NCBI GenBank assembly: GCA_020536535.1
Contig: JAHLWZ010000975.1
Span: 1-34,906, forward strand
Direction: 5' to 3'
Source: Pelomyxa schiedti
Taxonomy: Eukaryota > Protista > Evosea
Length of the DNA stretch: 34,906 nt
Below the pieces are notes generated by a model that was given only the letters and a program-made list of their open reading frames with translations, was not told the origin of the DNA and ran no database searches. The translations under genes and the position numbers were made by a program. Below are positions 4,142 through 34,377 of the stretch, one piece after another (positions within the stretch are counted from its first letter, which is position 1; each line of letters opens with the position of its first letter).

Positions 4142-7100
4142 TTACATCCAAACAAATGCCAAAACAACAGCCAAAGAAACAACCCAAAGAGCCACAGTCA
4201 TGTGGAGACCCCACAATGACTGTCTTGGTACTGATAATCCCGTTGGGGTCTGGTTGTATCCCAACAGCTCAAATAGATACACTAGAGGCAGAAGCAGTAA
4301 CCTGACACAATACCTAGCCAGTGGGTGATGTGTAAGCCATAGTGCAAATGGTGGTGATGTGGCATAGTAGAGGTCTATGAATTTACGGCCCAGATAGTGG
4401 TTGTGTAGAGTTGTATCCCTGTTTGTTTTGTTTGTTATATGAAAAGACATGATTGATATAATTGAACCTGAAACGGCGAAGTGTGTTGATTCTTGGGTCT
4501 AGGGGTGACCCATAAGCAGCAGTGGCAATGAAGCAACCACCTCTTTTGGCTTTTTTCGCACTACATTTGTAGCTCATAGCCTGGGTGTGAAGAGAAAGTG
4601 ATTCCGGTGAATAATAAGAATCCTGCCCAAAGAGTAAGGAACGGATAGCGTAAGTATGTACTAACCTCAATTGTGGGGTCATATTCATCACAAAAAAGTG
4701 CTGCCCTCCTAAAAAAAAAAAAGGTAAGCAATGGCAGACAACATGGATGCAAGTACTTTGAAATACTCTCTATCTTCGCTGATTGTTCTTGCAGATCATC
4801 CATCACCGAGGAAGACGACGAAGTAGTGGTAGAACATTGTGGTGGAGGTGGAGGTGGAGCTGCTGCTGCAGAGCCAGATGGAGGCGGCGGCGGAGCGGAT
4901 TCAGATGGAGGAGGCATGTGTGAAGGTGTTGGTGTAGGTTGAGCTTGAGGTTTAGGTTGAGGTTGGGATTGAGGTGCAGGTGAAGGCTTGGGTGGAGCGG
5001 GGCTGGCAGCGGCACATGCCGCGGGGACTGGGATTGATCTCGCCATGTCCTTCTTTTGGTTCATGGCGCTTCCTGCTTTTCCTCTGCCTTTGGCATTCGA
5101 TTTCGGTGCTTCCTCACATTTAATGTCGCATTTCATGTCACATTTCATGTCACATTTTGGGGAATAGTCACATTTTTCCTCGCATTTCGATTTTTTCTTG
5201 GCTTTGTATTCGCGTTTAACGTCACACATCCCTGCTTCTTCTTTCATCTTGCTCAACCCTCTTGGAGCACCAGGAGCGCGACGGAACTCCATGTAATCAT
5301 CCTCCTCTTCACATTCTGAGTCAGAGCTGTCACTGGCACTGCCACTGCTGCTGCTACTCGACTTGCGTCTTTGCTTATATTTTTTTTTGCCACCACCCCA
5401 CGAGGAGCTTCTTGTATCAGCAGTTGTAGAGCCGCTGATTTGCCAATCTTTTTCCCATTGAGTGGTATTTTAGAATTCAAGGCCATACGAGGATTAGATG
5501 TGGACACTTTTCTAGATTTTTTGGTTTTTTTCCCTGGAGCCCAGTAATCAAACTCAGTGTGGTGGTAAGCCTTTGGGTACATTTTCCTAAGTCCATAATT
5601 AAAATGTGAATTTCCAGGCCGACCGTAGTACTACATTTCTCACCTGGATGAGACCACACTGACGGTGGTATTATAATGAACCTTCTTTATTTCCTTCCAG
5701 TTTGTGCAAAATGGAATTTCATCCACGCTTTCTGCTTTGTCTAACGTGGCAATAGGAGGTGTGGGTTTCATCTGTACTTCCCTAGTTCATGTTTTAAAAT
5801 AAAAAAAATAGTAATCATAAAAAAGACCTACCCTCTTTTCTCTGCTTCAGTTCTTTCCTGGATGCCATTAGGGTAATGTAGGATGATTCTTTTGGAATAC
5901 CTCAACGGCAATGAAACTTGTCAACGTGGTTGCTAAAGAATACCTCACACCAAGATCTATTATTTCACCTTTGCGCTACTGTGTGGTTACAAAGAGGTAT
6001 TCTGTCTCCCTAATACCTTTTCCCGTGCAAGTTCACTTGAGACATTGTCCTCAGCAAGGCTACTTTCCTCCCAGTCTCTGTGCAGAAAGAATTCTCAGTT
6101 TAATGTAATAATGCTGGAGATAACAGACCGAACAATAGCTCGGGCGCATAGCCTGTGAAGAGTGAGTCCATTTACAGTGTCACCAATGCTTGATGTTACA
6201 GTAGTGAGAAACTGAGCCCCAGTGTCACTTTCTTTGCCTTGGAGAGTAACCTTTGGGAGAAAGAAGTTTGTAATCACCAAATATAGGCGGAGACATACGC
6301 CATGGCAGTCAGCGTTAATAAAAGAATAAACAATGACTCTATCTCCAGAGAAAAGAGACATGACCTTTTGGGGGGCCTGTCTCGCTACAGAAGGAAATAT
6401 GGTAGCAGAAGAGGCACTCCCGCTTCCCCATTTTATTGCTATATCTTTCAAACAAGCTTGCTTACTTCTAGATATTTGACTTTGTACCTATGCAGTTAAA
6501 TTAGCAGAAAACGTTTTTAAGTCCAAGTTTACCTGTCCTCGGAGTGGATTTGATTTCGAAACAAATTCACAGGCACCACCTCCTAAACGGGCAAAGGACA
6601 TGAGGTTGTGTCGGTGTACTTCAGTACCAACACCAAGGGAGAAAACCCGGGTTTTACTGTGGGGATCCTGACAGTGATCAAGAATACTCTACAAAGTATT
6701 TAGCAGATAATTCAAGAGAATGATTACCAACCTTCATCACTTGTAGATCGTTGGCAATATCACCATCAGATATGATGAACAAGTTATAATTTGTTGAGCG
6801 TTGTTGAGCATCATTACTGTCCCGGGTGCACTCAATTTCTAGAAGAACACTTTTTAAAGCGGGCCAGAGCATACTCCCTCCCCAATTCGCTTGTAATTGC
6901 TTCAGGTCATTACTTAAATAAATAGCGTGGGGTGCATTGGTACCATGATATGGTTATGAGCTATGGACTGGGTTTCAGAGGTTTTTACAACGGAGGTGAG
7001 GAAGAGTGCTTCAAATGTGGATCCAAATGTTATTACATTGAATCGAGACATCATTGGTACCCCCCAAACTAGGCCGGTTATTAAGGAAGATGATATGAGA

Positions 7101-10100
7101 AGACACACGTAAGTTGAGGGAGACCTGTTTGCATTCGAGCAGACATGGCCCCATACTAGCAGATTGATCAATAAGTAGTATATCTAAGTTTTGGTTTAGA
7201 AAATATTGAATAAGTTAAAATTTTACACTCGGTATTGGAATCCACAGATTCACTGAGAGTTGGATAGAGCGCAACCATGGCAACATACTCCTCATTGGGA
7301 GGTATTGTGTTGTTGGATTTCGTTGGGGTTAAGGCATCAAGTTGAGGTGCCTTTTCCACCCACATGAATGGTGTGTGGCTATCACACATACGAACAAGGA
7401 GTATGAAGTCACTTGAAGGAGGTTCTGAAGGTATATCAACAAAGGGAATTCAAAGCAAGGAAAAACCATCAATCCAGAACAGTGTAGCTTTTCTTGGGGT
7501 TTGCTTGAATCTTATAGAATGTGTCGGACTCTCAATTTCGTGTATCACATGTGGCATATTGATGGCAATCTCCATTGAAAATGGACCCTGCATTGCGGGA
7601 AGGTGAAAATGCATATGTAAATAAAGCCATATAAACCCGATGCTCTGTCACACTAATGGTGCTTGTATTGTGCTGTGTGATGGGAGCAAGTGCACTGTGT
7701 TTTAACTGTCCGACAAGGTTCACGGGGCAAAGAAACTTCCTAGCCATGGCTTCGATTCCCAGTTCAGTAATGTCTAGTATTTCAATTGAAGGTAAGCGTA
7801 TTCTTAATATGGAGGCTGATACATGAGATCTTAATCACAACTTTCGTGTGTGGGGGGAGATTGCCCACTGAAACTGTGAAAACATTGGATTTGGCCTCAT
7901 CGAGTAGGTAGGCCCCATCGCCTCTCTTGATTGCTTCCTTGTATTCCTTATGAGCTTGTTCTTTCTCCTTTACTACTCCAATGACATGTTTGTCTGGATG
8001 CAGGTGAATGGGAAAGAAAAGTGCTCAATAATGCATACGGTTTATGAACGCCTCAAAGCCCACAACAGCTGATTTTTCGTCTAAAGGAAAAACATATTTT
8101 GCTTCTATTGGCGTTGCACTTGTGTTATGAAATTCTTGGAGGATGACGACTTCACCCACAAGATCTACACACATCAGTTGATTGAAACGCTAAGCATGCA
8201 TACCAATCAGCTTTGCGTGGATGCTAATAGCTTCCAGTGGTATGGGTTGCCCTGTGCTAGATACTAATCCACCTTTTTCTTTGGACTGGCGAACTAGTAA
8301 AATAATGTTTTGAACAAAAAAAAACATACAGCTGGCAATTCCGGCTTTGCTGCAGGGATGTTTGAAGAATCAACAATGACACGTTTTTTTATTCCAGAGA
8401 GTATACTCGAAAGTAAGGTGTTATCCTGCTGTTTTGGGTTCTCTGGCTTAAATCCAGAAATTTCCAGAAGGTACTGCACATGTTGTTGTGCAGTGGTATA
8501 GATCACATATCTTTGAGAATCAGTTTCCATTAGAAGAATAGAACTTGACACACTCATCGTCATCAAACTCGCTTTTTACTCCTGGTATTGCTTTTACACC
8601 GCGACAACTGTTAAAACTAGGAGGAGGCGCTGTCAAGGAGAAATCGTATTTATGTAAGTCCTTCACATTCCCAAGTGCGACCCGCGATAATAACAAGTAT
8701 CTACAGAGTAAAAAGGAAGGAAAGCTATTATGAGGGATGTCCACCAACATATAAGGTACCTGTTCCCATTTTCGTCTCCAGTGGTATATTTCAAGGCTGT
8801 TAGAGGATCATCACTGAAGTAAAGGCCGGCACCAAGGTTCCCCGCATTTGTCCGCTTTACACCAAGTGTTGTGGTAACAGTATGTGGAAGTAGCATTCCT
8901 CGTGAAAGAATTCCCAGCCAATTACCTTATGATATTAAGTTCCCGGCATTACATCTCCTATTTGAGTTAACCTATGGCAGAGCCGTGAAATAGGAGCCTT
9001 TCGTTACCGATGTCTGAATTAAAATTGGACAAGTCCATTTGCCTTGAAACTTTGAATACATTCGAAACACTCAAGTGAGGTGCGTGTTGTGCCACAAGAT
9101 CTAGAACATTTGAATATTCCAGAGTTTCGGATGGGAGAAGCTCAATTGTTGCTCCAAGGGAATAATAACTTGGGAGACAGTAAGGAATGTGTAAAAGGTG
9201 GAATTACAGTACAGCAAATCAACATCTCCAAGGTTGCCTGTTAGGTTGAATGAGCCTTCTCCTATACAGGACACATCCCGCATATCCTGAAGAGTGTCCA
9301 TCCAAGATAGTACCTGCTCGATAGTAGAGATATCCTGCATTGAAAATATCAAACGAAGGAAAATGTTCTATGTGAAAATATCTACATTTTGCATGTTTGA
9401 AGCTGTAGGAACAAAGGAAAAAAATTCAGTTGTAAGTTGATGTGCAACTGTGGGGTCCAGTTCACCATTTTCTATCGCCTTTGTAGAGTTTTAGTAGTCT
9501 TTCTAAAAGGCACAAACCAACCTGCTGAATCTTCCTCAGGACCACGGCAGCTTTTTCTATTTGAGGGGAAGAGAGCTGCTTCAAGGAGATATTCTTAGAG
9601 CAAAGTTGGATTGCTGATTCCTTCCAAAGTCCAATTAAGAGCTTTCTGACAGCAGCAGGCACAATGGAGGCACTTGCTGCATCCAATAAACCATCACGTT
9701 CAAAGTTAACATAACAAACAAATAAACAAACGAGTACCAGTGGTGTTTCCTATGTTGGCAGAAGATAGAAGGACCTTTTGGTATTTATTTTTGGTTGTCT
9801 AGGAATAGTAGTTTAGAAGAAAAGAAGGTGAACTGTACTTTAAGGTACTTTTTCTCTGAAGAGTGAACCGTAAACAGCCACGGCATCAGTCCATGAATGA
9901 ACATACATGTGATAGGGTTTTGAAATGTTTTTATCTAGTTGTTCCATTGTGCCCTTAAGTGTTACGATGCGAAAGAAGCGTGCTTGTCCATCCACTGTGC
10001 AATGTTATCTAAGAATGATGAAAGATGATAACCTCCAATGTGCAGTTCCATTAGCAATAAAGATGACCTCTTAACAAAGAACTTGGAGAGTAAATCTCTT

Positions 10101-16984: not shown

Positions 16985-19900
16985 ATGCATCAACGAACAG
17001 AAACGCCATCACGCCCCCGTCCGTTATCGGTGAGGCTTTTTTTTGTTGTTTCTCTCTCGTCGCTCTATATTATTCCTACCTGTCATTAGTGTTTCCTTGT
17101 TTTTTGTTTTTTTTTTATCAGCATAATTTTTTTCCCCCCCTATAGGGTGTTATCATTGGTGCTAAGGGAAACCTGCAGCAATGCGTTAATTGTACTACAC
17201 AACCATCAAGCACACCAACATCACCATCTTTGACACCCATTTCCGCGCTGCCTTGTAGCGAATCACCGTTGCTGCCACTGTCACCGTCACCATCACAGTC
17301 ACTGACACAGGAGGATGCTTTTGCTTTTACTTTGGCACCACCACCATCTACACCAGCACCACTCCCACCATCCACACCTCGGATCACGCTATCATCTCTG
17401 CCACCCCTGCCCCCTCTGTCATCACTTTCGCTTCCTTCTGCGCCTCCTCCACCCCCTCCCTCTGTGTCTGCAATGCCACTGTCATCATCATCGCTTTCTT
17501 TGCCGCCACTGCCACTACCACCTTCTCCTTCAACCTCGAAAATGCCAGCATATCCGGCACCTTCTCCTCCCCTGGGAGTTTTGACTGTACCACTAAGCAC
17601 TACTGTGTGTAATTCTACACCACCAACTGGAATGAGCCCAAGTACTCTTCCAAGTGAATCCACTTCCACACCCCGAACTACATCTTCACCAACACTATCC
17701 TCATTTATTCCTGCTGTGCCATATTCGCACACAACTCTTCCACAGGCAAAGCATGTACCTCGGGCAACATCCACTCCTCTGGCACTTTCTTCTCCCCAAG
17801 TCCCAACAGCTGACATAACACCATTCCCCACGGCCATACCCGATGATGCCAAGCAAGTCGAGGTTCTCGTAGTAGGGATTCACGACCTCTGTGCTAAATC
17901 TCTTGCTACTCAATTTGTAGAGAGTATTTATCTCCCAGAAGAGCATGGTATCTAAGGCTCAACACCTTCCTTCTGACCTATTACCGGCAGAATTCACTCC
18001 TGGTTGTAAAATTGTAATGGCTGGCCTGTTTCCTGCAAAAGTTCATGTAACTCACATTTCATGGAACAATGTGGAACCTGGTCTTCTACAACTCGCTCCC
18101 AGTTCCAGTTTAGTGGTCTATGTGCAAAGTAGGACTGATTGTGTGTCATTTGGGCGACTTGAAGAAGCACTCGGGACACTGCATAAGAAATGCAAAGCAC
18201 GCACAGTCATGTGTGTGATTGATTCTAGAAAGGACATCACTGAAGAGTCAGCTCCAAATACAAAACGTTATGTTCGTGGTGCTGAATTTCTCTCTGTGCT
18301 GACAAAACTTGAACACATGGTGTGGATGCTGGGTTGTGCGGATGTTCGTGACACAGGTTCTGTCTGGTTTTTTTTCCAAGAAGTATTGTCAAATTTTCTT
18401 TCCAAGACACCAAGTAAGAAAATGTATGTTTCCATAGAAGAAATATTTTAAATGCAAACCTGAGCAACAGACAACATTGGTCACACTCTCTTCCTGAGCC
18501 ACAGCATTCACTCCCACGTGATCTTATAGAAAAAGTCTGCACAGGTCTCCAGCGAACCAAAACTGGAATACCTTCTTCAGAAGAGGAGATGACTCTGGAC
18601 ACTTTGATACATTCTTTGGTCGAGTTCCCTGGGGTAACTCTCCGCGATTTACTGTGCTTTAGATTAAGTGTGGTCTCTTTTTCCATACCGAAAATCTGAT
18701 CCGTTGCAGAAAAAAAACTTCTGTTTTTGGAAGAAAAGAGTTTTTTTGGTCTAATGTCACATTACCAACAGTTCCAAAACAATTTTGTTGAACAAGTTCA
18801 TCCAACTTACCAACTTCTCTACGAAGACACCCTAAAGCATCTCTCATCTAAAATTGTGGAAAGTATGGACTGTATTTTCTATTTTCTGGTCTCTAACAAA
18901 CAAAAAACACACAAAAAAAGAACCCCTTCGCGATGTGGCACCCAATTCCACTACAGTTTCCCTGGATTTCCTGTTTCTTTCAAAATTTCCGGGTACTTCT
19001 AACTCCCCATCAGTCTTTATTAATCTTGTATAAAAGAGAAACCTCTATCAGGGGTATCTTCCTCACTCACGGCACTCAATTTGTCTCACAACTGTCTTGT
19101 GGAAATTCCTTCTTCAATATCTTTTTTACGCAATCTTCTAAACCTTAACTTGTCCTGTAAGTCTTCCCCCTTAAAAAAAATCTTCTTTTCTTTTTTTTTT
19201 TTTTGTAACAATAGACCAAAACAAGGGAATAACCTCACTTGTCTGCCAGCCTCACTATCATTGCTATTCAACTTGACCACACTCAACGTTGGTTCCAATT
19301 CTTTTCCAGAGTTAATACTTTCCAGATAGAGCACAATCAACTGGCCTCCTTGCCAGAGTCTCTTGGAAATTGCCTGTTAATGGAACTCAGATGTGGATAC
19401 AACAACGTATTTTTATGATATCCTTAGTCGATTTATCTAAATCTCCCCAGCTACAAATGCTACCACTGAGCTTGACGCACCATTTGGCACACAAGCAGTT
19501 GTCATGTGACCCTAATCCCTTCCATGAGCTGCCTCCCTCACGCGATCTCCTACACTACTTACAGCAATGTTCGAAAACTCAGAGTTCTCGTTGGCCCAGA
19601 GTGAAGCTTGTTCTTGTTGGGCCTGTATGTTGTATAGATAACATTATTTGGCTAATCACACCATAAATACAAAGGAAAATGTCGGAAAAACAACTATTGC
19701 CAACCGGTTGCAATCCAAAACACATGATGGGATTTCTACAGGTGATGAGAATTATCGAGGCATGCATAAGTAAACAATCTTTCTAGATGGCATAGATATT
19801 CAGTTCCTGACTATTAAAACGATTGATTTTAGTCTCTGGGGTATTTCTTCTCTCTCCTTCATTACTTTTTGATCCCCAACAAGACTTCGGTGGACAGGTA

Positions 19901-22900
19901 TGCCTTAATGCCAAATTGTTATTATCCTAACACGAAGTTTCTAAAGGCAACTTTCCTGCCAACACATCAGGTAAGGTTTCTGTATGTTGTTGTAAATATG
20001 GCCTTAGTGAATACAGTTTTTCTTGACTGGGCGCGCCTTATACCTTGTTGTATACGATCTGCAAAACCCAAATTTCGCTCGAAATGAATATTGGATCAGG
20101 TGCTTGCATCGTCCACATCTGGATGTGAACTGATCCTCGTAATAGGCAAATTTTGCACACTTCCAGATCTGGGCCAGTCCCACCTGTTATTCTTGTTGGT
20201 ACACGAGCAGATAGACTCGCCTCACTTGAACAAGCTTCTCAGATTAGTGAAGCTGTGACTACACAACTTCGTTGCATATGTAAATCAATGGTAGCCAGTG
20301 TCGTCGTTTCAGGAAAGGATGGAGATCTGTCTCCTCTAGAAGATGCAATTTTGAGAGCAACTTCACAGAAGCAGAGTGTTCTGTGTCCAATGGTTAAGAT
20401 TACACTCAATTTTAAAAAGTGGTTACTTCTGCTAGGTACCCACAGGGTACATTTTATTGGACGAACTTATACAAGAAAAAAAGAAGTCCTTGCCTTATGT
20501 GAACTGGACAGTTTTCAGTCAGTGGGCATCAGAACCTTCAGTTGATCTGGGTTCTGAACACTTAAAAGAGGTAGAACAGTTATTTGTATTTACACTCAGT
20601 AACTCAGGTGACCTCTTTTCTGCATTCAGTCGGGTCCATTGTGCACTACGACTCCAATAGCTCTCAACTTGGAGATTATGTTGTTCTCCAACCTAAGTTT
20701 TTAGCTGGTCATTCCTCTCTATCTTACTTTTTCCTTATATTTATCTTAGATCTGATGTCAACTACAGTCACGTTTAAGACTAATATTGGCAGTGGGTTCT
20801 TGGGCCGGGAGACTCTTACTCAACTTTGGCAGCACTACAACGCAGAAACACACCCGATGCTGATCGAACTGTTATCTTTATTTTTGGTTCTGCTCCCTAT
20901 TTGTATAAACAGAAAAGAGGGCTTTCTAGTCCCTTGGTAAAATATAAGAAGCAATACCAGTATTACTTACTATGCTGCAGTGCTTTACCCGAAAAACCTC
21001 CCCCAGAGGCAGAAACATTTGGAACTGCAACCGAATATCAGACTTATAAAAAATACGGTACTTGGCTTTCACTGGACTGCACAGAAAAAGTAACTTTGTT
21101 AAGACAGGATTTATAGCTTTCCAGGTTTACCTATTGGTCTCTTTGGTAGACTACTAGTACGAATTATGCACCTACCAAACATCACAAATTTCTTATTTTG
21201 GCGGGACAATTTGCAAATTGAAGTTCTTCCTGAGGGTGGTATGTTTCCCTCTCAATTTGATTACCTGAATAACATGAATTAGATGCACGGAAGCAGTTGG
21301 GTTCTGTCGTTTTTGATTCTGCGGCTGGATTAACTCAATTTTTGATTATTTCCGTGAAACTACCACCTCACGCTGTGTGAAGTCACTTCCCTTACCACCT
21401 CCAATCTGATATTTCCATAGAAGCCTTATCTGATGTCCAAGGTTCTTTTATGTGTAGACACTACTATAGAATGCTTTTATAAGTATGGTTTCCGCTTTCT
21501 TTCCTGCTGCTTCCATCCCTTTTTTAGGGGGCTACAAGTTGATTTGCATCAATTTGTTACATGCACACACTGTCCTGAACCATCTGCCAATTCACCTTTA
21601 GCACACCAGTTTCCCCTGGAGGAGGTATTTTCTGCTTTGACTAACAAGACCACTTTGCTATGCCCTGTAAGTCAAATGAGTGTATGTTAGTCTGTGACAT
21701 CCCCTAGGTAGAGAAAATTAATGTCCGTCCTCATTTATTGGCACCAGACTTGATGATTCCAAATTGCAACCAAATCAGTGAACAGGAGATTCAAGACTTA
21801 ATACCGATAGGACAAGGTTTTCCTTTGTAGAATTTTAAATTTGCCAAATCCTAACGTGCAACAGGAGGCTTCGGAAAGATATACAAGGGTTTGTAGCAAA
21901 GTTTGATAATGGATCCACCGACAAATCAATAAGGTATTTGGGATGGCAAAGAGGTTGCAGTTAAGGAAATGCTCGTTGGGTCTGATGAAGAGACTGGTCT
22001 CGAAAAATTCAACGAATTTCAAAGGGAAGTCGAGTTAATGAGGTAATGGAAGAAATGATACTCTCACCTTCTCACTTTTTGTAGCATGTTAAATTCCCCC
22101 TATATTGTCAAGCTCTTTGGGATTTCGTCTCCCAGTACAATAGGAAAAATGCCAATGATGGTCATGGAATTTGTGACAATGGGAGACCTAATGAAAGTTC
22201 TCCAAAAGAAGTCTGTCACTCCAGAAGTTTCAAGTATAAAGCCACGTTTCATATAAGTGGCTCATTTTTTACAGCGTCTATGCCTCTGGGGGATGGCCTG
22301 AATCAGTACCCCGAAGAAGACCCAACATACCTTTTTAAAATGAGGTTTAGTTCCTTTTATTTCCAAATGAGGTGCTTTTTTTTTTTCTAAGCCTAACATA
22401 GTTGGAGACTACGACTTCTTTTGGCTCTGGATATTGCAAAAGGGTTGTCTTACCTTCACTCCTTACATCCTCCTGTTATACACAGGTTGCTTGAGGCTTA
22501 ATTTTGGTACTAATACTCTCTACAGAGATCTTCGTAGCCCTAATATCTTTGTGCGTTATTGTATCTATTAACATCTCACACCAATTGATTTCAGATTAAA
22601 ACATTGGACCCAGAGGCACCAGTTCGAGCCAAAGTGGCTGACTGTAACTCTCACCCAGTCATTCTCCTCACTAATTTCTTCCTTTTTTAACACAGTCGGC
22701 CTCAGCATAACTGCAGCTGGAGGTGTCAAAGGAAACCTGAATACGTGGCAGGTACCTTTTTAGACAAACTGTTCTGATAATGACTAAATGAATAAAAGTG
22801 GTTAGCTCCAGAGGTAATTGATTCTGATACGGAGAAATACGATTGCCAGTCGGATATCTTCAGCCTTGGGGTATTCTACATAACTTGATTTCATTTTTTA

Positions 22901-24578
22901 ATGCCTCTAGATTGTTATCTTTGAAATTTTAACTCGATCCTTCCCCTATGATGGTGCTCATCCTCAATTCCTCCCCCTTACGAACTTTTAACTCCTCCAG
23001 AATATGCCACCCGTGACCTATACACTGTCACCGTTGGTGGAAATAAAGAGTGGCGAATACAAACAGTGAAACAAGCTATTATAACTGACAATCTACGACC
23101 CACCATTCCACCAACTTTAAATTGTCCACGGTGGAATTGCTCATCTTAGAGAGATTTTTTAACACTCCTTAGTCTCTTACGACCATTCGTTGAGAGCTGC
23201 TGGCGAAAGATACCCTCAGAAAGACCAACCGCCTCTCATTCTGTAACTTTTCTGCAAAAAGTCCTTGGAATATCAGAACCTCTCGTGACAGCAACCGCAG
23301 CAGGTGTGGTGCCACCTTTATTTTTGCATCACGTAATTTTTTTTGAAGAACTCCTTCCTCTTCCCTCGGAAATCCCGCTACTTTGGAAGAAAGAACCTAG
23401 TTTTAAAGTAACAGCATCCGTCATGTCTGACCAAGGAGGCACAACTTCCTTTGTGAGTTTGTTCCTTTTTATATTATCTTACGGTAACGGAAACCAGATT
23501 GGTTGCAACGACGGAGCAGTGAGGCAACTTTCCGCTAATGGTGATATCGTCGAGTTGGCTTCTGGTCCAACCAAATATACGAAAATTTACTGCGTTTTGT
23601 GTGTTGGGGCAGAGTTATGGGTTGGAGCCAATGGTGGCAGAATCAGTGTTTATGATGCCCTGGTATTTCATAGCTCCATTGCGTACTTCTTACTTTTCTA
23701 TCTCAGACACTCCAATTTAAAACTGAAATCACTGTTCATGGGGACTCCCATTTCACAACCCATCTAATTGCTATATATGATAATTCAAATCTGACTGCAG
23801 TCTGGTCTGTATCCTCCACGGAAGAAACTGTTGTTAGTGTAAATCCACAAGTGTGGCAACAACCTGTTAAAAATTTTTTTTTCTAATTTTTCTTTCCAGG
23901 AAAAGGAGGTTATGAATAAGGTCTATCTCGGAGAAAAGACACAAATAGGATGCTTATGTCAGCATTCTAACTTTGTCTGGGTTGGCTGCTTTCATAAAAT
24001 TATCATCATGAATTCCAATACTATGCAAACTTATAGAATTCTTACGCGAGGTCAAAATCTTGCAAGTGAAGTTTTTCTTTAATGTGGAAACTAGGCGTGC
24101 CAATACATAAGCATGGATGTGTGATTATCTCTGAAGATACAATATGGTTTGGCACTCACAACAGCATAAGAGTGTATGACGCCAACTTCTTGGTATTACG
24201 CCTCCTCTTTAAATTTCAATTTCCTAAGATATTTTGAAGAATTGCACACAGACCCTTATTGGACATCAAGGAGAGGTTACTTCATTCTGCCGAGCTCTTG
24301 GGTTTTTTAACCCCTTATCCTCCATATCCTTATTCCAACTGCCAATTAGTTACATATGGTCATCTGACAGTGAAGGAGTAATTTTTGCATGGAACTCAAG
24401 ATCATTCACTCCGGCACACAAAATATCTCTTCCGGGAGTATTTATCACTTCACTATTTTCCTTTTCACAGTAAGTGCTCCACAACAATTACACATTTTCA
24501 TCACTGCATTACAGTCTTCTTGTTTATTCCGCCATGTTCCCCACAGGGCAAGTTGGAGCCTATTCCCTTCGTAAGTAG
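16985..24578 (+). CDS. Roco-family protein: Pro/Ser-rich region, degenerate Ras-like domain, LRR, ROC, COR, TKL kinase, WD40-like C-terminus; many exons
   Basis: Exon 1 MHQRTETPSRPRPLS splices in phase 0 to 17146. LRRs: NLSHNCLVEIPSSISFLRNL, GNNLTCLPASLSLLFNLTTLNV. ROC: VKLVLVGP|ENVGKTT, W|DFGGQ, VILVGTRAD. COR: VTSFLHSVGSIVHY, YVVLQPKFL, FPGLPIGLFGRLLVRI. Kinase: IGQ|GGFGKIYK, VAVKEM, FQREV, IHRDLRSPNIF, AD|FGLS, WLAPE, DIFSLG. The C-terminus has beta-propeller-like repeats (LWVGANGGRISVYD, VWVGCF, IWSSDSEGVIFAW). Confidence 0.93.
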
Positions 24579-24970
24579 TTCTCCTTCTCCCTCAATTCGA
24601 CTTCTTACATTTCCCATGATAAAGCCAAATCACCAGCGAAGCCACCATCGACTCCACCACAGCCAATGCGTTGGTCAACGCCCACCAAGACCAAAAAACA
24701 TTAACTCCCCATCACCACAAACCCCTAGTCAGACACATAACAATCTGCAGAGGTTTTTCTTTGTGGAAAAGAAAACCTTTCACTCTATCAAGCCAACTTC
24801 TTCTCTTCTTTTACGCCGAGACACAGCGCAAAATCCATTCAATATGGTTGATCCGATTGCGTGTTGTTAGAATCACCACCCGCACAAAAAATATCCAAAC
24901 ACGTCGGGAAAACTTCCCCTTTTGGTGTTTTTCGCCAAAGCCACGTAATTTCGAAATTCACTTCACTTCA

Positions 24971-26332: not shown

Positions 26333-26428
26333 ACTCTTCCACTCAAACCATTGTGGTGGGACTGAACAAATTTCCCAATCTAATTTTGCACCAAGATATT
26401 AAGCTGAAAGAACAAGCAGAGCTTTCAA

Positions 26429-26567
26429 CAAGCTCGTTGTCAACAAACAAAGTTGAAGCACAGGAGGGGAGATAGTGGGGAGGAGGGGGAGGGGGAGGGG
26501 GGGGGAGGGAGTACCTCCTCCTTTACCCTCCTCCCCCTCCTCCCCAACCAAGCTCGTTGTCAACAAA
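26429..26567. repeat. 19-bp direct repeat flanking a G-rich/C-rich inverted repeat
   Basis: caagctcgttgtcaacaaa occurs at 26429-26447 and 26549-26567. Between them, ggggaggagggggagg (26477-26492) is the reverse complement of 26530-26545. Confidence 0.9.
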
Positions 26568-26584
26568 AATATTTGTATTGGCAG

Positions 26585-27993
26585 ATGACAACCAAGTTGG
26601 GGCGCGGACGGGGAGGGGGACGCGTTGCACCAGGTCGGCGGGACGGCCCTTCCTTCGAGGTGCCGTACGACGTGTGCGTCGATGCGCCCAGGAATCGAGT
26701 TGTGGTTGTGGACTGGCAGATGAACGCGGTGTGGATACTAAAAGGCCTTCCCGACACCAGCTCCGTGTCGCGGCGCTCCTGGCAGGATTGTGGGACGCGA
26801 CACAAGATGGCTTCCGTGGAGCTGGGCGACGTCGAAGTGCTTCTCGTCGGGGGGAGAGGTAGGCAGGGGCTCGAGGACGGGCCAGCGAAAGCCGCTTCTT
26901 TTAAGTGGCCTATAGCGTTGGTGGTGGCCAATGATGGGACAATTTACGTGACCGAGCAGGGGAATAGCTGCATTAGGAAGGTGTCACTGAATGGTGTGTG
27001 TTACTAGGGAAAAGCTCACTCATGCTGGCGATTTTTCCTCTATTGTGGGGTTATGTAATAATCTTTAGGGGACGTTACTCTTGTGGCTGGAAGGGGAGGA
27101 AACGGATTTTCTGATGGAAGAGGTGCTGAAGCTTATTTCTCTTCGCCATGGGGAATTACTATTGAGCCTGGAAGTGGAGACCTTATTGTGTGTGATGTAG
27201 AAAATCATAGGATCAGAAGAGTTACAACCGATGGTTAGTTACCCTTTGGATTACAGCCTTTTGCAATAACTAGGCTTTTCCTGTACTAATCCAGGTATGG
27301 TCACAACTCTTGCAGGGACGGGTGAGAAAGGGTCAACTGATGGCCCGTGCTTACTGGCCAAATTTTCAGCTCCTCGTGGACTTGTATTTGACTCACATGG
27401 AAACCTCTTTATTACCGATTGTGGCTCTTCCTCCATCCGTAAGATTTCACAAGGTTCGTACCACCCCTAATTCTTGTCCTACAACTAATTGGCAATAAAA
27501 AATAATTACCCTTTCGTTGGTATGATCAATCTATCAAAGGGCAAGTTTCCACTTTACATAGATTCAGCTTTGAAGGAATGGATAACAATATTTTAACTGC
27601 AATCAAACTTACACCTGATGAACGGCAATTTGTTATCTCTGACCCAAGAAACAAGATAATACTATTTTATTGCATTGGTTTTGACTTTGATCTCTCGTCT
27701 CCTTTACTACTAAAATCTTTTCCACAGAAACAGGAGCCTGTGAGCTTGTTAACAACTTGCCCATTCTTCACCCCATGGGCTTTTTTGTGAGTAGGGATGG
27801 CGTCTATCTGGCACAGGGAAAATCAAAAGCCTTGGTTTGCATTAAACTGGGGCTCCCCACTTTCAAGGAACTGAAACCGCTTCTGATTGGGTGGAAAGAC
27901 AACAACAGCCTGCTCAATTGTCTTCCCCTTCCCCTGCTTCAGATGATTATCGAATATGCATGGACATGCTCTCTTCCTGCTCTTAAATTGTAG
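26585..27993 (+). CDS. NHL-repeat (beta-propeller) protein; multi-exon
   Basis: Repeats include GLEDGPAKAASFKWPIALVVANDGTIYVTEQGNSCIRKV, GFSDGRGAEAYFSSPWGITIEPGSGDLIVCDVENHRIRRV and GSTDGPCLLAKFSAPRGLVFDSHGNLFITDCGSSSIRKI. Stop TAG at 27991-27993. Confidence 0.88.
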
Positions 27994-28061
27994 AATTTAG
28001 CAGACAATAACTTGCAACTTCTTGAAAACAACTGAAATGGTTTTTCTTCCCTTTTTTTTCC

Positions 28062-29398
28062 CTAGTACAGTGAGAGGGTGCTCTCTGATGTTGTACCACT
28101 TTTTGGTGCTTCTACCTTGGGTGTTTCCACCTCCTCAGATGGGGTACCTTTTGAAGGCACCGTTGCTGAAGGGGTTGTGGATTCCACTGCAGGCTCTGGG
28201 TCATTGATGTACCTCGGGACAGACTCAACAATCTGTAACAGCACATCATTCGATAAGGATGTGGAAGGAATCTCCATCCACTCATTGCGGGATTCTGTGG
28301 GATTTGCAGGGCATATGGAGAACTGGATGGACATAAGAATTTGGTTAATGATTGTGCTGACGACTAACCATCCATCTCAAATCGGGGCCAATTTCCCCAG
28401 TGTGAGGGTTGCGCCTTGAATACCAGATTACTTGTCCATTGTGAATCAAATCCTTTGGGTCTTTAGACAGATACAACTTGGTGAAATCTCGTTGCATTAT
28501 TTTCTCAATCCTTGATCTGAACACCCACATAACCTAGAGAGGGTTTCTACCTTGTTGTTGTGTACGGCCTTCTTACCTCACCATGGCATACAATCACAAC
28601 TTGTTTGCCAGACAACTCACGCCGGAGTGTATTATAAGTATGGTCAATCCTCTGCAGTACATGTGCAAGAGACTCTCCTGATTGAGGAGACCAGAAGAAA
28701 CTTTGAACAGGATTAATTGTGCAGAGTTATCATCCCCTGTTAAAATTTACCAATCACGCGCTCGCCTCTCCAGTTCTGCGGCGTATTTCGCCCTCTGTTA
28801 CAACCACCACACGAGATTAGTATGATCACAAAGGAAAAACTGGCTTCACCTGTTCCACAATAGACGTATTATCAAGAACGCCCTTATCTCTCTCCCTCAA
28901 TAGAACCTCTGTTCTCCAAACAGCCCCAGGCAGGTCAAGCAATGCAGCAGTCTCCATGGCCCTCGTGTATTCGCTCGTGTAGTATCTATCAAAGTGTGTG
29001 GTGATGTTTTTCTTTATCCAGGCTCCAGCAGCCTGAGCCTCTTGTCTCCCGCGGTCTGTGAGCCTGAGTGACGACGATTATGTTAGTTGACGAACCCAAA
29101 TTACTTCCATAGTGTTAGAGTGGAGATTGTCAATACGAATTCAAAAGCAAGCATAAGGAGCAAGGATAGAATTGAAATAGAAAAGAACTGGAGATGCCGG
29201 GCACCTGTAGAGGCTCGAGTGCTTTGCGGCAAAGCCCTCGACGGCGTAGCCACTGAGATCGCCCTTTTTTGCGCGGCTCTGGGCCTCGTTGCCCTCGGAT
29301 CGGCCGTGCCTCACAAACACCAGATCAATTGGTGGCAACCCGTGGGACACGTGCGGTGCCGTTGGCGGTTCACTGCAAGTTGCTGTTGTCGATGCCAT
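28062..29398 (-). CDS. Histidine phosphatase / phosphoglycerate mutase-like protein; multi-exon
   Basis: Contains DLVFVRHGRSEGN (RHG motif), LYR|LT.., YTSEYTRAMETAALL, LRERDKG, PQSGESLAHVLQRI and VVIVCHGE. Confidence 0.9.
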
Positions 29399-29602
29399 TT
29401 TTCGTCTGTTCTTGTAAATCCCGAATCAAAAACCTGTTCAAGGGGCGTTTCCTGTTTGTTCGAGAATATCACCCTTTTCACCTGCACCTCCGCTGTTCCT
29501 TTCCAACATCCACTGCGTGTTGTGCTCGGAAAATTCTAAACTATTCTACAGTTTCGAGGTCACAATTGCATTGCAATCAATCGAAACACTGACACTGATT
29601 AG

Positions 29603-31710
29603 ATGGCGGCAACCTCTGTTGGCACATACAGGCCGTGCAGTGTCCCAGAGGCCATCGAGGCAATCCGAGACCTCCACGAGAAGCAGCGCACCTACTACCC
29701 CTGGACCCCCAACACGGCCCAGCTGGGCCCCCGCGACCTCCTCCTCATCGGCTCCCGCGCCCTGGCCTACCTCTCCCAGTGGGGCGCCTTCTCCCCCCCC
29801 GCGAGCCCCAGCCCCTTCCGCCCCGTGGACGCCCGCACCGACTGGGACCTCGTGGGCAGCAAGGCCTCGGTGGCGGCGTGGCTGGAGCGCTGCGCGGCCC
29901 GCGTGGACCAGCTGCACATCAGCAAGGGGGCCCCGCGTCTAGTCGACGAGGGCGACTTCGAGGGGGTGCTGCTGGTCTCGTGCAGGCTGGACGGCGTCCA
30001 CGACGTCGAGGTGCTCGTGTGCACGTTGCTGAGGGAGCAATTGGAGTGTGAGGCGGTGCCCACGGGATTTGATTGCTGCTTGCCTGATGTATCTATATGC
30101 ATATTATCTGATATCCTCTCATCTTGTTTTATTGGCTAATACATTTGGTTTCTTTGGTTTGATTTACATTTGGTTTTCGTTTTTGGTTGTTTTATTATGT
30201 ACATTTGGCGGTTTTACACTTGAGTTTCTTCTCCCTTAAACTATTTAAGGTAAAAATGTTAACCCTTTTTAGGGCACCCCATTTTCTGTGGCGAGTTTGT
30301 TGGCCCTCTGTAAGATAAAGCTCAGTCACTTGGTTTACAATGTCAACTGGAAAAAGCACATGCTGCATTTTGAGGCTATTAAACGCCATTTGTCAGACAG
30401 AAGGCTTCTTGATTCATATCTATTTCAAGTGCTTAACGATTATTCCTGGGAATATAATCCACTGTGCCTCGTGAATAAGCTCATATACGGGTATGCACCA
30501 ACGCAGAGACACTGGATGAGCACCAATCAGCTCATCTCCGAATCCGACTTACCTGCCTTAGAGAGCAAACTTTTGGCCTGCCCTCCTGACTCCCAGAACG
30601 GGTCTGAGACAGGAAATGACCTCAAAGTGAGAGATGTAATACGTACTTTATCACAAGGAGCACTGGATCAACAGTCCTTTTTTTCGCTTTCCGGGAATCA
30701 ACAGAAGGCAGTGGCACTCGAGATAGCCAACCAATTTAGTGCAAGATCCAGAGTCTCTTTTGTGGAGGCAGTGAAAGCGGTCTGTACTTCCACCTTCACC
30801 ACCTTCATTCCTTCCATCTGACACCCATAATAGTTATGCACAAACAAGTCGTTTCCTCCCTGGTTCATTGCCACTGTTATTTTTTCTTGTAGTAGATTGG
30901 TTTCTGACGCAATTCTGTTGGCGCCATTGACTGATGAACCAAGACACGTTTTAAAGAGTGTGCCCCTCCCATCACCATCTCCCACGAGGGAAGAAGAACT
31001 GTTGCTTTTCACACAGCTCCCTCTCGAGGTAGCTGCTTTGACATTTACTTTCACTCCACTAAATGCGTATATATTAGACAAACTGGATGATTTTGTCATT
31101 TCTGGGATACAAAGACATACTTGTCTGTAAACAGATCTGCAGGAGATGGAGAGTTCCATTCTGTAACAACGGGACCTGGCATCGCTTGTATACTAACCGC
31201 TGGGAGATTCCGCACTTTCCTTATCAGAACGCAACTGACTGGATGTTCTTATACGGAGTGCGCTGCTCAGTATACGAAATGAACCCGATAGAAGGGGTGT
31301 CTCCCTCCCAGTCCCTAGTGACTCAATGTCGGGAAGCAACACGCAACCTTCGCACTAGCACTGCAAGCAGTATTGCCAAGTTGTGGCATAGCCTCATGGA
31401 ACTTTGTACCCCTGCAGACCAGGTTCTTCCTCAAAGTGAACTGGAAAAGTTTATCCCGGATTGGTTGGTTCTCTCGTTGCAATCTGCAAACGTGTTTGAT
31501 ATTAAAACCGATGGTCACATCGAAGGCCTGCAGTGCAGTATAGCAATGTACGGAACCAAAGGTATTATCGTGCCCCCTTAATGCAACCCTGAATAACCTA
31601 AACTAGAGAATGATAAAACTGTGGAACACACTGAGCTCCTTTTATTCCTCTTGTGCGATAGAAATGGCACATCATACTATGATTTGATTGAGTGGACCCT
31701 TACAGTCACA
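29603..31710 (+). CDS. Fusion of a phage/giant-virus-type nucleotidyltransferase-like domain and an F-box domain; multi-exon, 3' end uncertain (stop at 31581 if intron 31562-31606 is not used)
   Basis: The N-terminal LLIGSRA...TDWDLV...DVEVL fits the Pol-beta-superfamily hG[GS]/DxD/acidic pattern. Exon 2 has KIKLSHLVYNVNWKKH and FVEAVKA|LCTNKSFPPWF. F-box: FTQLPLE|TNWMILSFLGYKDILVCKQICRRWR. Predicted introns are 30089-30272 plus shorter downstream ones. Confidence 0.75.
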
Positions 31711-31817
31711 GTAAGTTCATTTATCTCTTCACCCCCCCCAAAACTCCTGTATCTCATCTCATTTCAAACGACAACACGCGAAAAACCCATCTTGCACACA
31801 CAACTGAAAACCAACAG

Positions 31818-31857
31818 CAAACAACAAACAACAAACAACAAACAAACAAACAAACAA
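31818..31857 (+). repeat. CAAA/CAA simple repeat
   Basis: caaacaacaaacaacaaacaacaaacaaacaaacaaacaa lies upstream of ATG 31918. Confidence 0.85.
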
Positions 31858-31917
31858 GCTAACCAACCACAACACAAGCACCCGGAGACTGGCTCCACGC
31901 TGGCTCAACTGGACAGC

Positions 31918-32355
31918 ATGTCACTGCGCCGGTTCGGCTCCAACAAGGTGTCTGTGTACTCTGACCCTGCGCTGCCCAACCTGCTCACCACCGCGACTTC
32001 GGCGGAGCTCCGGCCGTTCACGAGGCGTGACCACCGGGGATCGAGCAGGGACCTGTTCTGGGGTGTGTTCTCCAGGCTGCCGCAGGGCCTCGTGGTGTCT
32101 GCTGTGATACACATGCTGCCCCGCCCAGAGAGGGACAACTTGGTGGAGTTCCTGCACGCGTCACCTCACACCTGGACTGACGCTTTTGACGACGCGTATG
32201 GTGCACACTGATGTGTTGGTGAATGTGAATCGACTTCAAAAGAAAAAGAGATTGGTTGTGGCTAAAAAACAACAGGAAATTGGAGCAAGATAGAGTGATA
32301 CGGCCGGACAAACAGTACAACATGCGTAGCGCGGTGCAGGGGAAACAACATGGGT
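31918..32355 (+). pseudogene. Short gene of unknown function, probably truncated by repeat copy B
   Basis: GC-rich exon MSLRRFGSNKV...AFDDA. A 47-nt GT-AG intron (32196-32242) joins it in frame to KRDWLWLKNNRKLEQDRVIRPDKQYNMRSAVQGKQHGL, which runs directly into the A-tract of copy B. Unspliced, it would stop at 32211 (97 aa). Confidence 0.45.
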
Positions 32356-32578
32356 TGAAAAAAAAAAAAACCAAAAAAAGATGGGAGGTGTTCACCGGGA
32401 ACCCAGGGTGGTCCGGCCGGACCCACCAACACAGGCTCCCAGCATCCCACAACCGCGGTCCGCGTCGCGTCGCGCCACGAACACAAGGGATTGGTGTCAT
32501 CCCGGTCCGTGGTCACGCGCATCACAGTCCTCGGCCCCAAATCCGCGTCGCGTCTCAATTCTCATTGAGCGCATCACA
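32356..32578 (-). repeat. Dispersed structured repeat, copy B (inverted relative to A and C)
   Basis: The reverse complement of 32356-32536 matches 1-182 with only a few differences. Positions 32537-32578 add an upstream unit repeating the boxes tgtgatgcgc and gacgcgacgcgga. Confidence 0.95.
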
Positions 32579-32707
32579 ATTTCGGGGAAGCAGGATGTCA
32601 GTAAGTCATTCCAGGAATGAACGGTCAGGAGCCTCTTTTTGGTAATGGATCTTTCCATTTAATTGGCGCCCGGTCGGTTTTGTTGGGATGTGCACTCAGT
32701 GCTGTTT

Positions 32708-32986
32708 TCTCCCATTTGGGAAATGCCGCCGGGGAGTGTTTTGGGAGAGTTCCCCGATGGGAGGGTTTGGGAGAATTTTGGGAGTGATTTGGGAGATCTA
32801 CTACCAGGCTCTGTCTGACTCAGCCGTTTGATCGTTCCCGAAATTGTTCTTGATTCTTTTGATAAGAAGTCAGTGCTGAGAAACGGGCAGACTGGGGATT
32901 GATGATCAAAAAGACTGAGGGAATCATTCTCCCCGAATTCTCCCCTCCCCTCCCAAAAACCTCCCATCGGGGAAAATCCCCGATGG
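32708..32986. repeat. Inverted-repeat / tttgggag motif cluster
   Basis: ttccccgatgggagg (32750-32764) is the reverse complement of 32960-32974. There is a perfect 10-bp hairpin ccatcgggga-aaa-tccccgatgg at 32964-32986 and several tttggga motifs at 32714-32795. Confidence 0.8.
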
Positions 32987-34190
32987 TCGGGTTTTTTACA
33001 GCACTGTGTGCACTTCCCTCAACCAACCTGGTATCGCGTGCTCTATTTTTCTGCCGTGAATCTTACTGAGAACGCTAGATCCAACTCACGTTCCCCGATA
33101 TGGTTGTCCATTTCGGGCAGGTCCGATCTATGCCTCTCATCGAATGTACATGGATTTTCTCTCATTTTTTCCCCCCGTTTCGGTCCCGGCACCGGTTATG
33201 GGTTAAAAAAAGAAAGAAAGAAAGAAAAAAACACACAAACGAAAGTATGGGGTTGTGGTGCATGAAGTTATCCATGTCAATTTAGTCACAAATGGAGGAT
33301 GATCATAGAGGGAGGGGTCCTCTGTGCTCCCCTGGAAGCCCTTCACATTGCATTGCATACATGATGAACTGAGCAATATTAATTGCAGGGGGCAAGTTAG
33401 ACCTAGAAGCGAGTTTATGGTGTCTGCTGTGAGATTCCGGTTCTGTACCGCCAAGTTGCAGCAGCATCAATTGTTTCGGCGATGGTTAATTGCTTGCTCC
33501 TATCTGGCCTGAGACGGCTGTCAGTAGGAGGTAGGACGGATTGTTGTTGCTCGGTCGTAATGGCTTGAGGCATGTTAGACTTGGTATTGATTTTTATGTT
33601 GGCTAACCAAGAAGGTTTTGCTGACGACAACTTGTTGATCTTGAACCTACTATCAAGTGTGAGACTTGGTTTACAAATGAAAACCTACTTGGGGTGCACA
33701 GGCTCTGGAACAAAAGCTCACAAAAGTGTGGTCGCGCGTGGTCTCGTCCTGAGTAGTTACATGAACCCTGTGCCCAGTGTGACTCATTCCATTTCCCACT
33801 GAGCTCCATATTTCTTTCGCGTTGCTGGCATCGAATATTCCTCCTGATACTTGATATCTTCTTGATAATAAATCAGATTGCTGTGTCAAAGAATTGAAAT
33901 CTTACCAGCCAGCTGACAATCAGTCTTGTCAAAACGAACATTGGCATAATGTCAATCACCAGCAGAGGACCTAACTGTTGGGTGTCCCCAGATAACTGAA
34001 CCAAGAAGAAGGATCGATAATGCAACACCCAGCACTGGATTTTGCAAGTGAATTGAAACCAGTGTCATTCAACAACCTAGGGCCCTCATTTTTATGCACC
34101 GATGGCGACGACGATGGCGACGCCGACGTTGAGCAAGTTGTAGCAGGAATTAGAGTAGACGTCCCCAGCGGTGGCACTTCAGAAAACGCC

Positions 34191-34377
34191 ATGCACGTGA
34201 CCACGGACCGGATGACACCAATCCCTTGTGTTCGTGGCGCGACGCGACGCGACGCGGACCGCGGTTGTGGGATGCTGGGCGCCCGAGTTGGGTGGGTCCG
34301 GCCGCACCACCCCAATGGGTTCCATCTTTTTTTGGTTTTTTTATTCGTAATGCCAACACACCGTCAACAAGGGAGCA
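34191..34377 (+). repeat. Dispersed structured repeat, copy C (more diverged)
   Basis: Matches copy A from its position 15. It has one extra GACGC unit and a deletion in the last hairpin, then the T-tract and the shared cgtaatgccaacacac...ggagca segment. Confidence 0.93.

Follow-up and report, generated by a model that had tools for sequence, protein, structure and literature searches.

Does the amoeba Pelomyxa schiedti encode, in one gene, a virus-type nucleotidyltransferase (NTase) domain and an F-box, and what might such a protein do? The question is raised by a 34,906-nucleotide stretch of DNA (the window; contig JAHLWZ010000975.1, positions 1 to 34,906 of the forward strand), in which the plus-strand gene Pelo_14984 spans 29603-32211 in six exons. 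Their spliced translation is exactly P0001, a P. schiedti protein of 702 aa that was the sole protein returned with exon 2 as the query. The earlier note on this DNA, made from the letters alone, had drawn two splices, and both coincide with GT-AG introns (30780-30833, 54 nt, and 31029-31077, 49 nt) and yield exons that translate to P0001. The gene end that it placed at 31240 had to be moved: three further exon segments follow, adding ~260 residues and running to a stop at 32211.

Every motif that the note had quoted is present, in the order given. Exon 1 (29603..30088, aa 1-162) encodes the NTase lobe and carries GSRA from residue 50 (29750-29761), D80-W-D82 (29840-29848) and, in the DVEV motif from residue 134, the third-acid strand D134-V-E136 (30002-30010). 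Intron 1 (30089..30272, 184 nt, GC 0.29) leads to exon 2 (30273..30779, aa 163-331), which encodes a decayed helical lobe with K178-L-S-H (30318-30329), W188-K-K-H (30348-30359), His194 and QSFF from residue 296; HDxxH, expected near 30507-30527, and EE-x6-ER, expected near 30714-30728, are both missing. Read unspliced into intron 2, the frame hits a stop at 30821. Exon 3 (30834..31028, aa 332-396) encodes the last helix of the viral domain (LCT..WF, residues 332-342), a Pro-rich linker and the opening residues of the F-box, with LPLE from residue 393, and is the physical fusion junction. Because a single open frame in this exon spans both the last viral-type helix and the start of the F-box, the junction needs no splicing. 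The viral-type domain and the F-box are thus part of a single protein, and the proposal of a single-gene fusion with a spliced, host-like structure holds. The F-box (31011..31194, aa 391-435) is interrupted by intron 3; exon 4 (31078..31561) supplies its remainder, a helical extension and the start of the C-terminal domain, which continues in exon 5 (31607..31710), and exon 6 (31879..32211) includes the stop codon.

All five introns are GT-AG (184, 54, 49, 45 and 168 nt), and the lengths of introns 2 and 3 are in line with those of nearby RNA-supported introns, which are mostly 40-55 nt. RNA contigs cover exons 5 and 6. The exon 4-5 joint, with 24 letters on its short side, is spliced in one RNA contig (intron 4, 31562-31606), and two contigs bridge 31710 to 31879 across intron 5 (31711-31878); both joints were seen in one sample, and DNA runs contain the unspliced form at each. 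Introns 1-3 are supported by the annotated model and by collinearity with P0003, a second fusion protein described below, which extends across the intron 1 joint. We note that 29322-31513 is without RNA contigs, which says nothing either way because RNA cover is patchy over the whole window (15 and 14 of 30 bins). On the minus strand at 27961-29425, a transcribed, spliced histidine-phosphatase gene (His_Phos_1, E 7e-10) lies head-to-head with the fusion gene, ~200 nt away, and bounds its 5′ end.

The F-box, which the note had called clear, passes two curated cut-offs, with 34.9 bits against 24.3 for PF12937 (E 1.3e-8) and 23 bits against 20.5 for PF00646 (E 7e-5). Its top sequence match in the PDB is the F-box of FBXW7 (PDB 5ibk, E 0.0067). 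The C-terminal domain of ~260 aa that follows it in P0001 gave no match in Pfam or NCBIfam.

Upstream of the F-box, residues ~45-345 of P0001 are divergently related to an uncharacterised family, DUF7277+DUF7275, which occurs in large phages and giant viruses. Weak Pfam matches occur in family order on exons 1 and 2: DUF7277 (PF23942) scores 15.2-17.8 bits on exon 1 (E 0.0057), under the gathering cut-off of 27, and DUF7275 (PF23940) scores 17.8 bits on exon 2 over profile positions 2-34 of 188 (E 0.0033), also under a cut-off of 27. Viral DUF7275/DUF7277 clusters ranked first for P0001 in the ESM Atlas (0.96), where one cluster set was labelled bacterial. No viral relatives came up when P0001 or its exon 2 served directly as the query. 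The match of P0001 to a first phage profile turned out to be circular, falling to -0.5 bits once the motif used for selection was masked, so we used instead a profile of 11 named phage proteins that were not selected by the P0001 motif, some of them reached via hits to P0003. Against this second profile P0001 scores 18.2 bits (best of 1000 shuffles, 2.2) and P0003 scores 49.9 bits; at the level of sequence, the match of P0001 to the viral family is beyond chance.

The note had described this family as one of large phages and giant viruses, and its distribution agrees. A single phage member matches 736 of 50,697 phage records, including those of RB69, KVP40 and Streptomyces phages, and the giant-virus members include proteins from Sylvanvirus (508 aa) and Satyrvirus (571 aa), with A0A3G5AJ90 and A0A3G5AE53 among them. 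From 114 loci obtained by a motif scan of viral contigs, 23 full-length ORFs were taken and aligned; DUF7275 is passed by all nine viral ORFs tested, and phrog_6944 and phrog_2141 are matched by all five tested. Eight of the viral loci (L003, L040, L132, L149, L150, L155, L159 and L166) encode DUF7275 members of 335-424 aa, and phrog_13591 is matched by the additional C-terminal segment of two of them, L003 and L040. Judging from such reading frames, the viral DUF7275 family also makes fusions or read-throughs.

A single-sequence model of P0001 was too poor to use (pLDDT 35), and we therefore infer its NTase fold by homology from a phage member, whose structure model has a pLDDT of 88. When the phage model was compared with 48,161 chains by VIA-align, the top match was MenT1 (PDB 8an4; Z 9.2, rmsd 2.8, 115 aligned), followed by MenT4 (Z 8.3), AbiEi (7.9), TglT/MenT3 (7.3) and ANT(2'') (6.8), with Z at 4.3 by rank 11; eight of the ten top chains are titled or published as nucleotidyl- or adenylyltransferases. 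Another search gave a similar result. This ranking identifies the family as Pol-beta-like NTases closest to the DUF1814/MenT group, as the note had supposed for the fold. Used alone on the phage model, Foldseek found no match in the PDB at E≤0.001. The Sylvanvirus and Satyrvirus proteins belong to a set of 11 viral fold hits that were significant. By way of its phage homologue's model, the P0001 domain would have the NTase fold, and P0001 carries the hG[GS], DxD and third carboxylate of Pol-beta-like NTases. Pfam AbiEii gave no match in P0001 at E≤1 and weak matches in two of nine phage members. By these measures, P0001 falls short of full membership of either the DUF7275 or the MenT family.

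Conserved residues give a closer view of what has been kept. Among 64 non-redundant viral sequences (drawn from 68, each at least 225 aa), GSxA followed by DxD occurs in 59, Kx[SA]H in all 64, HDx[ILFV]H in 60 and EE-x6-ER in all 64; at 24 additional viral loci, EE-x6-ER is found in every one and HDxxH in 22. P0001 and P0003 both keep GSxA, DxD and KxSH, and both are missing HDxxH and EE-x6-ER. In P0001, G50-S-R-A and D80-W-D82 stand in family order and the KxSH...WxKH helix pair is present (K178-H191), a motif by which the viral set was partly picked. Twelve N-lobe columns reach at least 80% conservation among 65 viral rows, and P0001 keeps 11 of them and P0003 10; of 20 downstream columns, where the alignment is less sure, the two keep 5 and 4. 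Retention in the KxSH and KH columns is in part circular, since it was by this motif that the majority of the viral rows had been selected. The third catalytic strand bears an acid in both proteins, in P0001 either D134 or E136 by a profile alignment of uncertain register. The sole N-lobe loss common to P0001 and P0003 is the Asp that lies 16 residues past the Lys, after WxKH: it is Asp in 56 of the 65 viral rows, His194 in P0001 and Lys in P0003. The other nine viral rows are also without it and have all other motifs intact.

The survival of GS, DxD, the third acid and the K/H residues in two proteins that are only 21% identical suggests that selection has acted on a putative Mg-NTP site in both fusions. 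The viral helical lobe contains, in addition, the near-invariant H143-D144-x-x-H147 and E187-E188-x6-E195-R196 (alignment A1, L005 numbering), a His/Asp/Glu cluster that has no good fold match (Z≤4.3) and is a candidate second, metal-binding site. Should HDxxH and EE-x6-ER share the NTase active site, P0001 may have no activity left. With one conserved viral site retained and the second gone, the fusions amount to a natural dissection of a common and unstudied family, and this predicts two separable functions, testable in a coliphage protein.

Among 1.84 billion cluster representatives searched, three proteins matched: P0001 itself, P0002 and P0003 (E 9e-4 for P0003). One of them is another F-box fusion, of the kind that the note had suggested looking for: P0003, a protein of 650 aa encoded on a single 2,940-nt ENA contig, has DUF7277 over its cut-off (34.4 bits) and an F-box, in the same domain order as P0001, and in a plain search its residues 29-308 match a phage member at E 1e-4. 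The two fusions align collinearly over 471 columns (E 1e-11, 21% identity). Against 300 shuffles, the N-domain reaches Z 18.3 and the F-box Z 7.9, whereas no relatedness of the C-terminal domains is detectable (Z 0.1). The shared unit is therefore the viral domain plus the F-box; the tails, by this comparison, either differ or have diverged past detection. Composition (FYMINK 0.32 versus 0.19) suggests that P0003 comes from an AT-richer genome. P0002 is 63% identical to P0001, of which it is likely a paralog, and its recorded form is without the catalytic motifs. Searches for further fusions found none; in four of them, the family members among the hits were 1 of 9, 2 of 87, 1 of 35 and 24 of 24 loci, the last set holding none longer than 364 aa. 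The fusion architecture, which occurs in two distant proteins, is undescribed; we found no account of the family or the fusion in the literature covered, outside which most subscription journals lie. To the note's reading must be added the ~260-aa C-terminal domain, P0003 and the loss of HDxxH, EE-x6-ER and the Asp after WxKH, none of which it contained.

In trees from which giant-virus sequences were absent, P0001 and P0003 sit on long branches with no stable sister, so no donor can be named. The other relatives found are viral or viral-looking, save the one Atlas set labelled bacterial, which makes a viral source of the P0001 N-domain likely. We also considered whether an AT-rich viral subgroup is giant-viral and dropped the idea: VLTF3 was present in none of five records (four from the subgroup), and one member had a ClpP neighbour. 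Among phage gene neighbours, 102 of 222 were scanned and none recurs; they include two RNA ligases, a poly(A)/CCA polymerase head, two tRNA-synthetase cores and a PP-loop protein, and tRNAs occur at 6 of 56 phage loci. Capture of the entire gene, ready-made, would follow if P0003 or the long Sylvanvirus and Satyrvirus proteins turned out to be F-box fusions of viral origin.

What, then, might P0001 do? Our leading reading, in which we place roughly even confidence, is that it is an SCF-docked, probably still active predicted nucleotide 'writer'. The virus-related, predicted NTase domain, with its putative Mg-NTP site kept, would likely add a nucleotide to some RNA end or protein, the F-box would dock P0001 on an SCF ubiquitin ligase through Skp1, and the C-terminal domain would bind the substrate. 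Through the SCF link, the NMP-tagged target could be exposed to ubiquitination, or else self-ubiquitination could hold the enzyme at a low level. In the simplest working model, P0001 would be 'writer-only', descended from a viral enzyme with two sites of which the second has been dropped. Counting against an active writer are the Asp missing after WxKH, the loss of HDxxH and EE-x6-ER, the scores of P0001 under the cut-offs of both DUFs, the lack of a PDB match by Foldseek alone, the C-terminal domains with no detectable relatedness and the motif-less record of P0002. The main rival, a serious one that we nonetheless hold to be unlikely, makes P0001 a pseudoenzyme, which would bind Mg-NTP, a nucleotide signal or an RNA end without transfer and would serve as a ligand-gated SCF substrate-recognition or sensor module. 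In both fusions the second site is wholly gone and so, judged by spacing, is the motif-IV-like Asp, with the binding residues kept, as they might be in such a module, but both DxD aspartates and the third acid survive at 21% identity, and these are the residues that pseudo-NTases usually lose. Comparison with the MenT toxins bears on the same point. MenT1 binds Mg through D41xD43 and the triphosphate through K137, and its D152A variant retains NTP binding and loses tRNA modification (PMC11375011); the toxicity of MenT3 is abolished by D80A, K189A and D211A (PMC7450476). MenT1 D152 would correspond, by spacing alone, to the viral Asp after WxKH and to His194 of P0001. If this equivalence is valid, binding is favoured over transfer, but the nine viral rows with all other motifs intact are without that Asp too.

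Two further readings keep the fusion and change its meaning. P0001 could be a virus-derived, MenT/AbiEii-like toxin that its own F-box keeps degraded, such that diversion of SCF by a giant virus or an intracellular bacterium would free it for tRNA or protein NMPylation and stop the cell; this eukaryotic toxin-antitoxin logic within one polypeptide strikes us as improbable. F-box proteins do undergo self-turnover, viruses do hijack SCF, and some phage members have RNA-repair or tRNA genes in their vicinity. In fold, the closest matches are toxins that modify tRNA (PMC7450476). Yet the fold similarity to MenT is modest and shared by antibiotic adenylyltransferases (Z 6-7), no phage neighbour recurs, and RNA-repair and tRNA genes are common in large phages. 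We give little credence to a neutral by-product, in which Pelomyxa-type amoebae put F-boxes on many domains and the viral piece is a decaying passenger: the decayed C-lobe and the motif-less P0002 are what it would lead one to expect, and the selective retention of the N-lobe (11 and 10 of 12 columns, against 5 and 4 of 20 downstream) at 21% identity is not. It would surprise us greatly if the gene model were wrong and the viral-like and F-box exons belonged to separate transcripts. Introns 1-3 are known from the annotated model and homology only, but the two parts share one frame in exon 3, the 54- and 49-nt introns match the nearby RNA-supported ones of 40-55 nt, and P0003 carries the same fusion in one continuous protein record.

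Other features of the window are recorded here for completeness. Directly downstream of the fusion gene, a segment of ~1.9 kb (32426-34291) is bounded by inverted-repeat arms (32426-32502 and 34210-34291, 91-100% complementary), holds a spliced minus-strand RNA contig (33301-34387) and is likely a non-autonomous DNA transposon; a similar repeat sequence seems to open the window at 25-297. On the plus strand, an NHL-repeat gene (26408-27993) has a terminal 'LLNCLPLPLLQMIIEYAW' tail, which we take to resemble an F-box- or SOCS-box-type adaptor motif; the tail piece gave no Pfam match. A large spliced plus-strand gene at ~17100-24600 with LRR and, by eye, Roc/COR, kinase and beta-propeller exons encodes a probable Roco protein. 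Minus-strand exons at ~6000-9750 resemble, by eye, the PARP catalytic, VIT and vWA parts of a PARP4-like protein, and two scanned pieces of this region gave no Pfam match.

With the DUF7277+DUF7275 viral proteins (RB69ORF134c, Bacillus phage G gp205, and those of Sylvanvirus and Satyrvirus), P0001 shares GSxA, DxD, the acidic strand, KxSH, WxxH and the closing K.CT..WF helix, in order. It differs from them (240-424 aa in the members examined) by lacking the HDxxH and EE-x6-ER that are nearly invariant there, and by having insertions and five introns as well as an F-box and one more domain. The bifunctional writer/eraser NTases GlnD and RelA/SpoT offer a parallel to the viral proteins, in which an NTase site is likewise accompanied by a second cluster, of His, Asp and Glu, that could bind metal and is lost in amoebal P0001; the analogy is a lead only, because the listed fold hits held no HD-domain structure. 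Among solved structures, MenT1, MenT3 (TglT) and MenT4 come nearest in fold to the model of the phage homologue (Z 7-9), and a metal-binding DxD and a Lys motif stand at similar spacing in P0001, which differs from these toxins in having no sequence-level match, no antitoxin and, judged by spacing, no motif-IV-like Asp, and in its eukaryotic F-box context. Like the F-box substrate receptors of SCF, P0001 has an F-box over curated cut-offs, a helical extension and a C-terminal domain. Unlike them, it has no WD40, LRR or other named domain at its C-terminus, and its F-box is central, with a predicted enzyme domain N-terminal to it; to our knowledge, an enzyme domain of their own is rare among F-box proteins. 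Should P0001 prove active, a virus-type gene would have given rise to an SCF receptor able to write a nucleotide mark.
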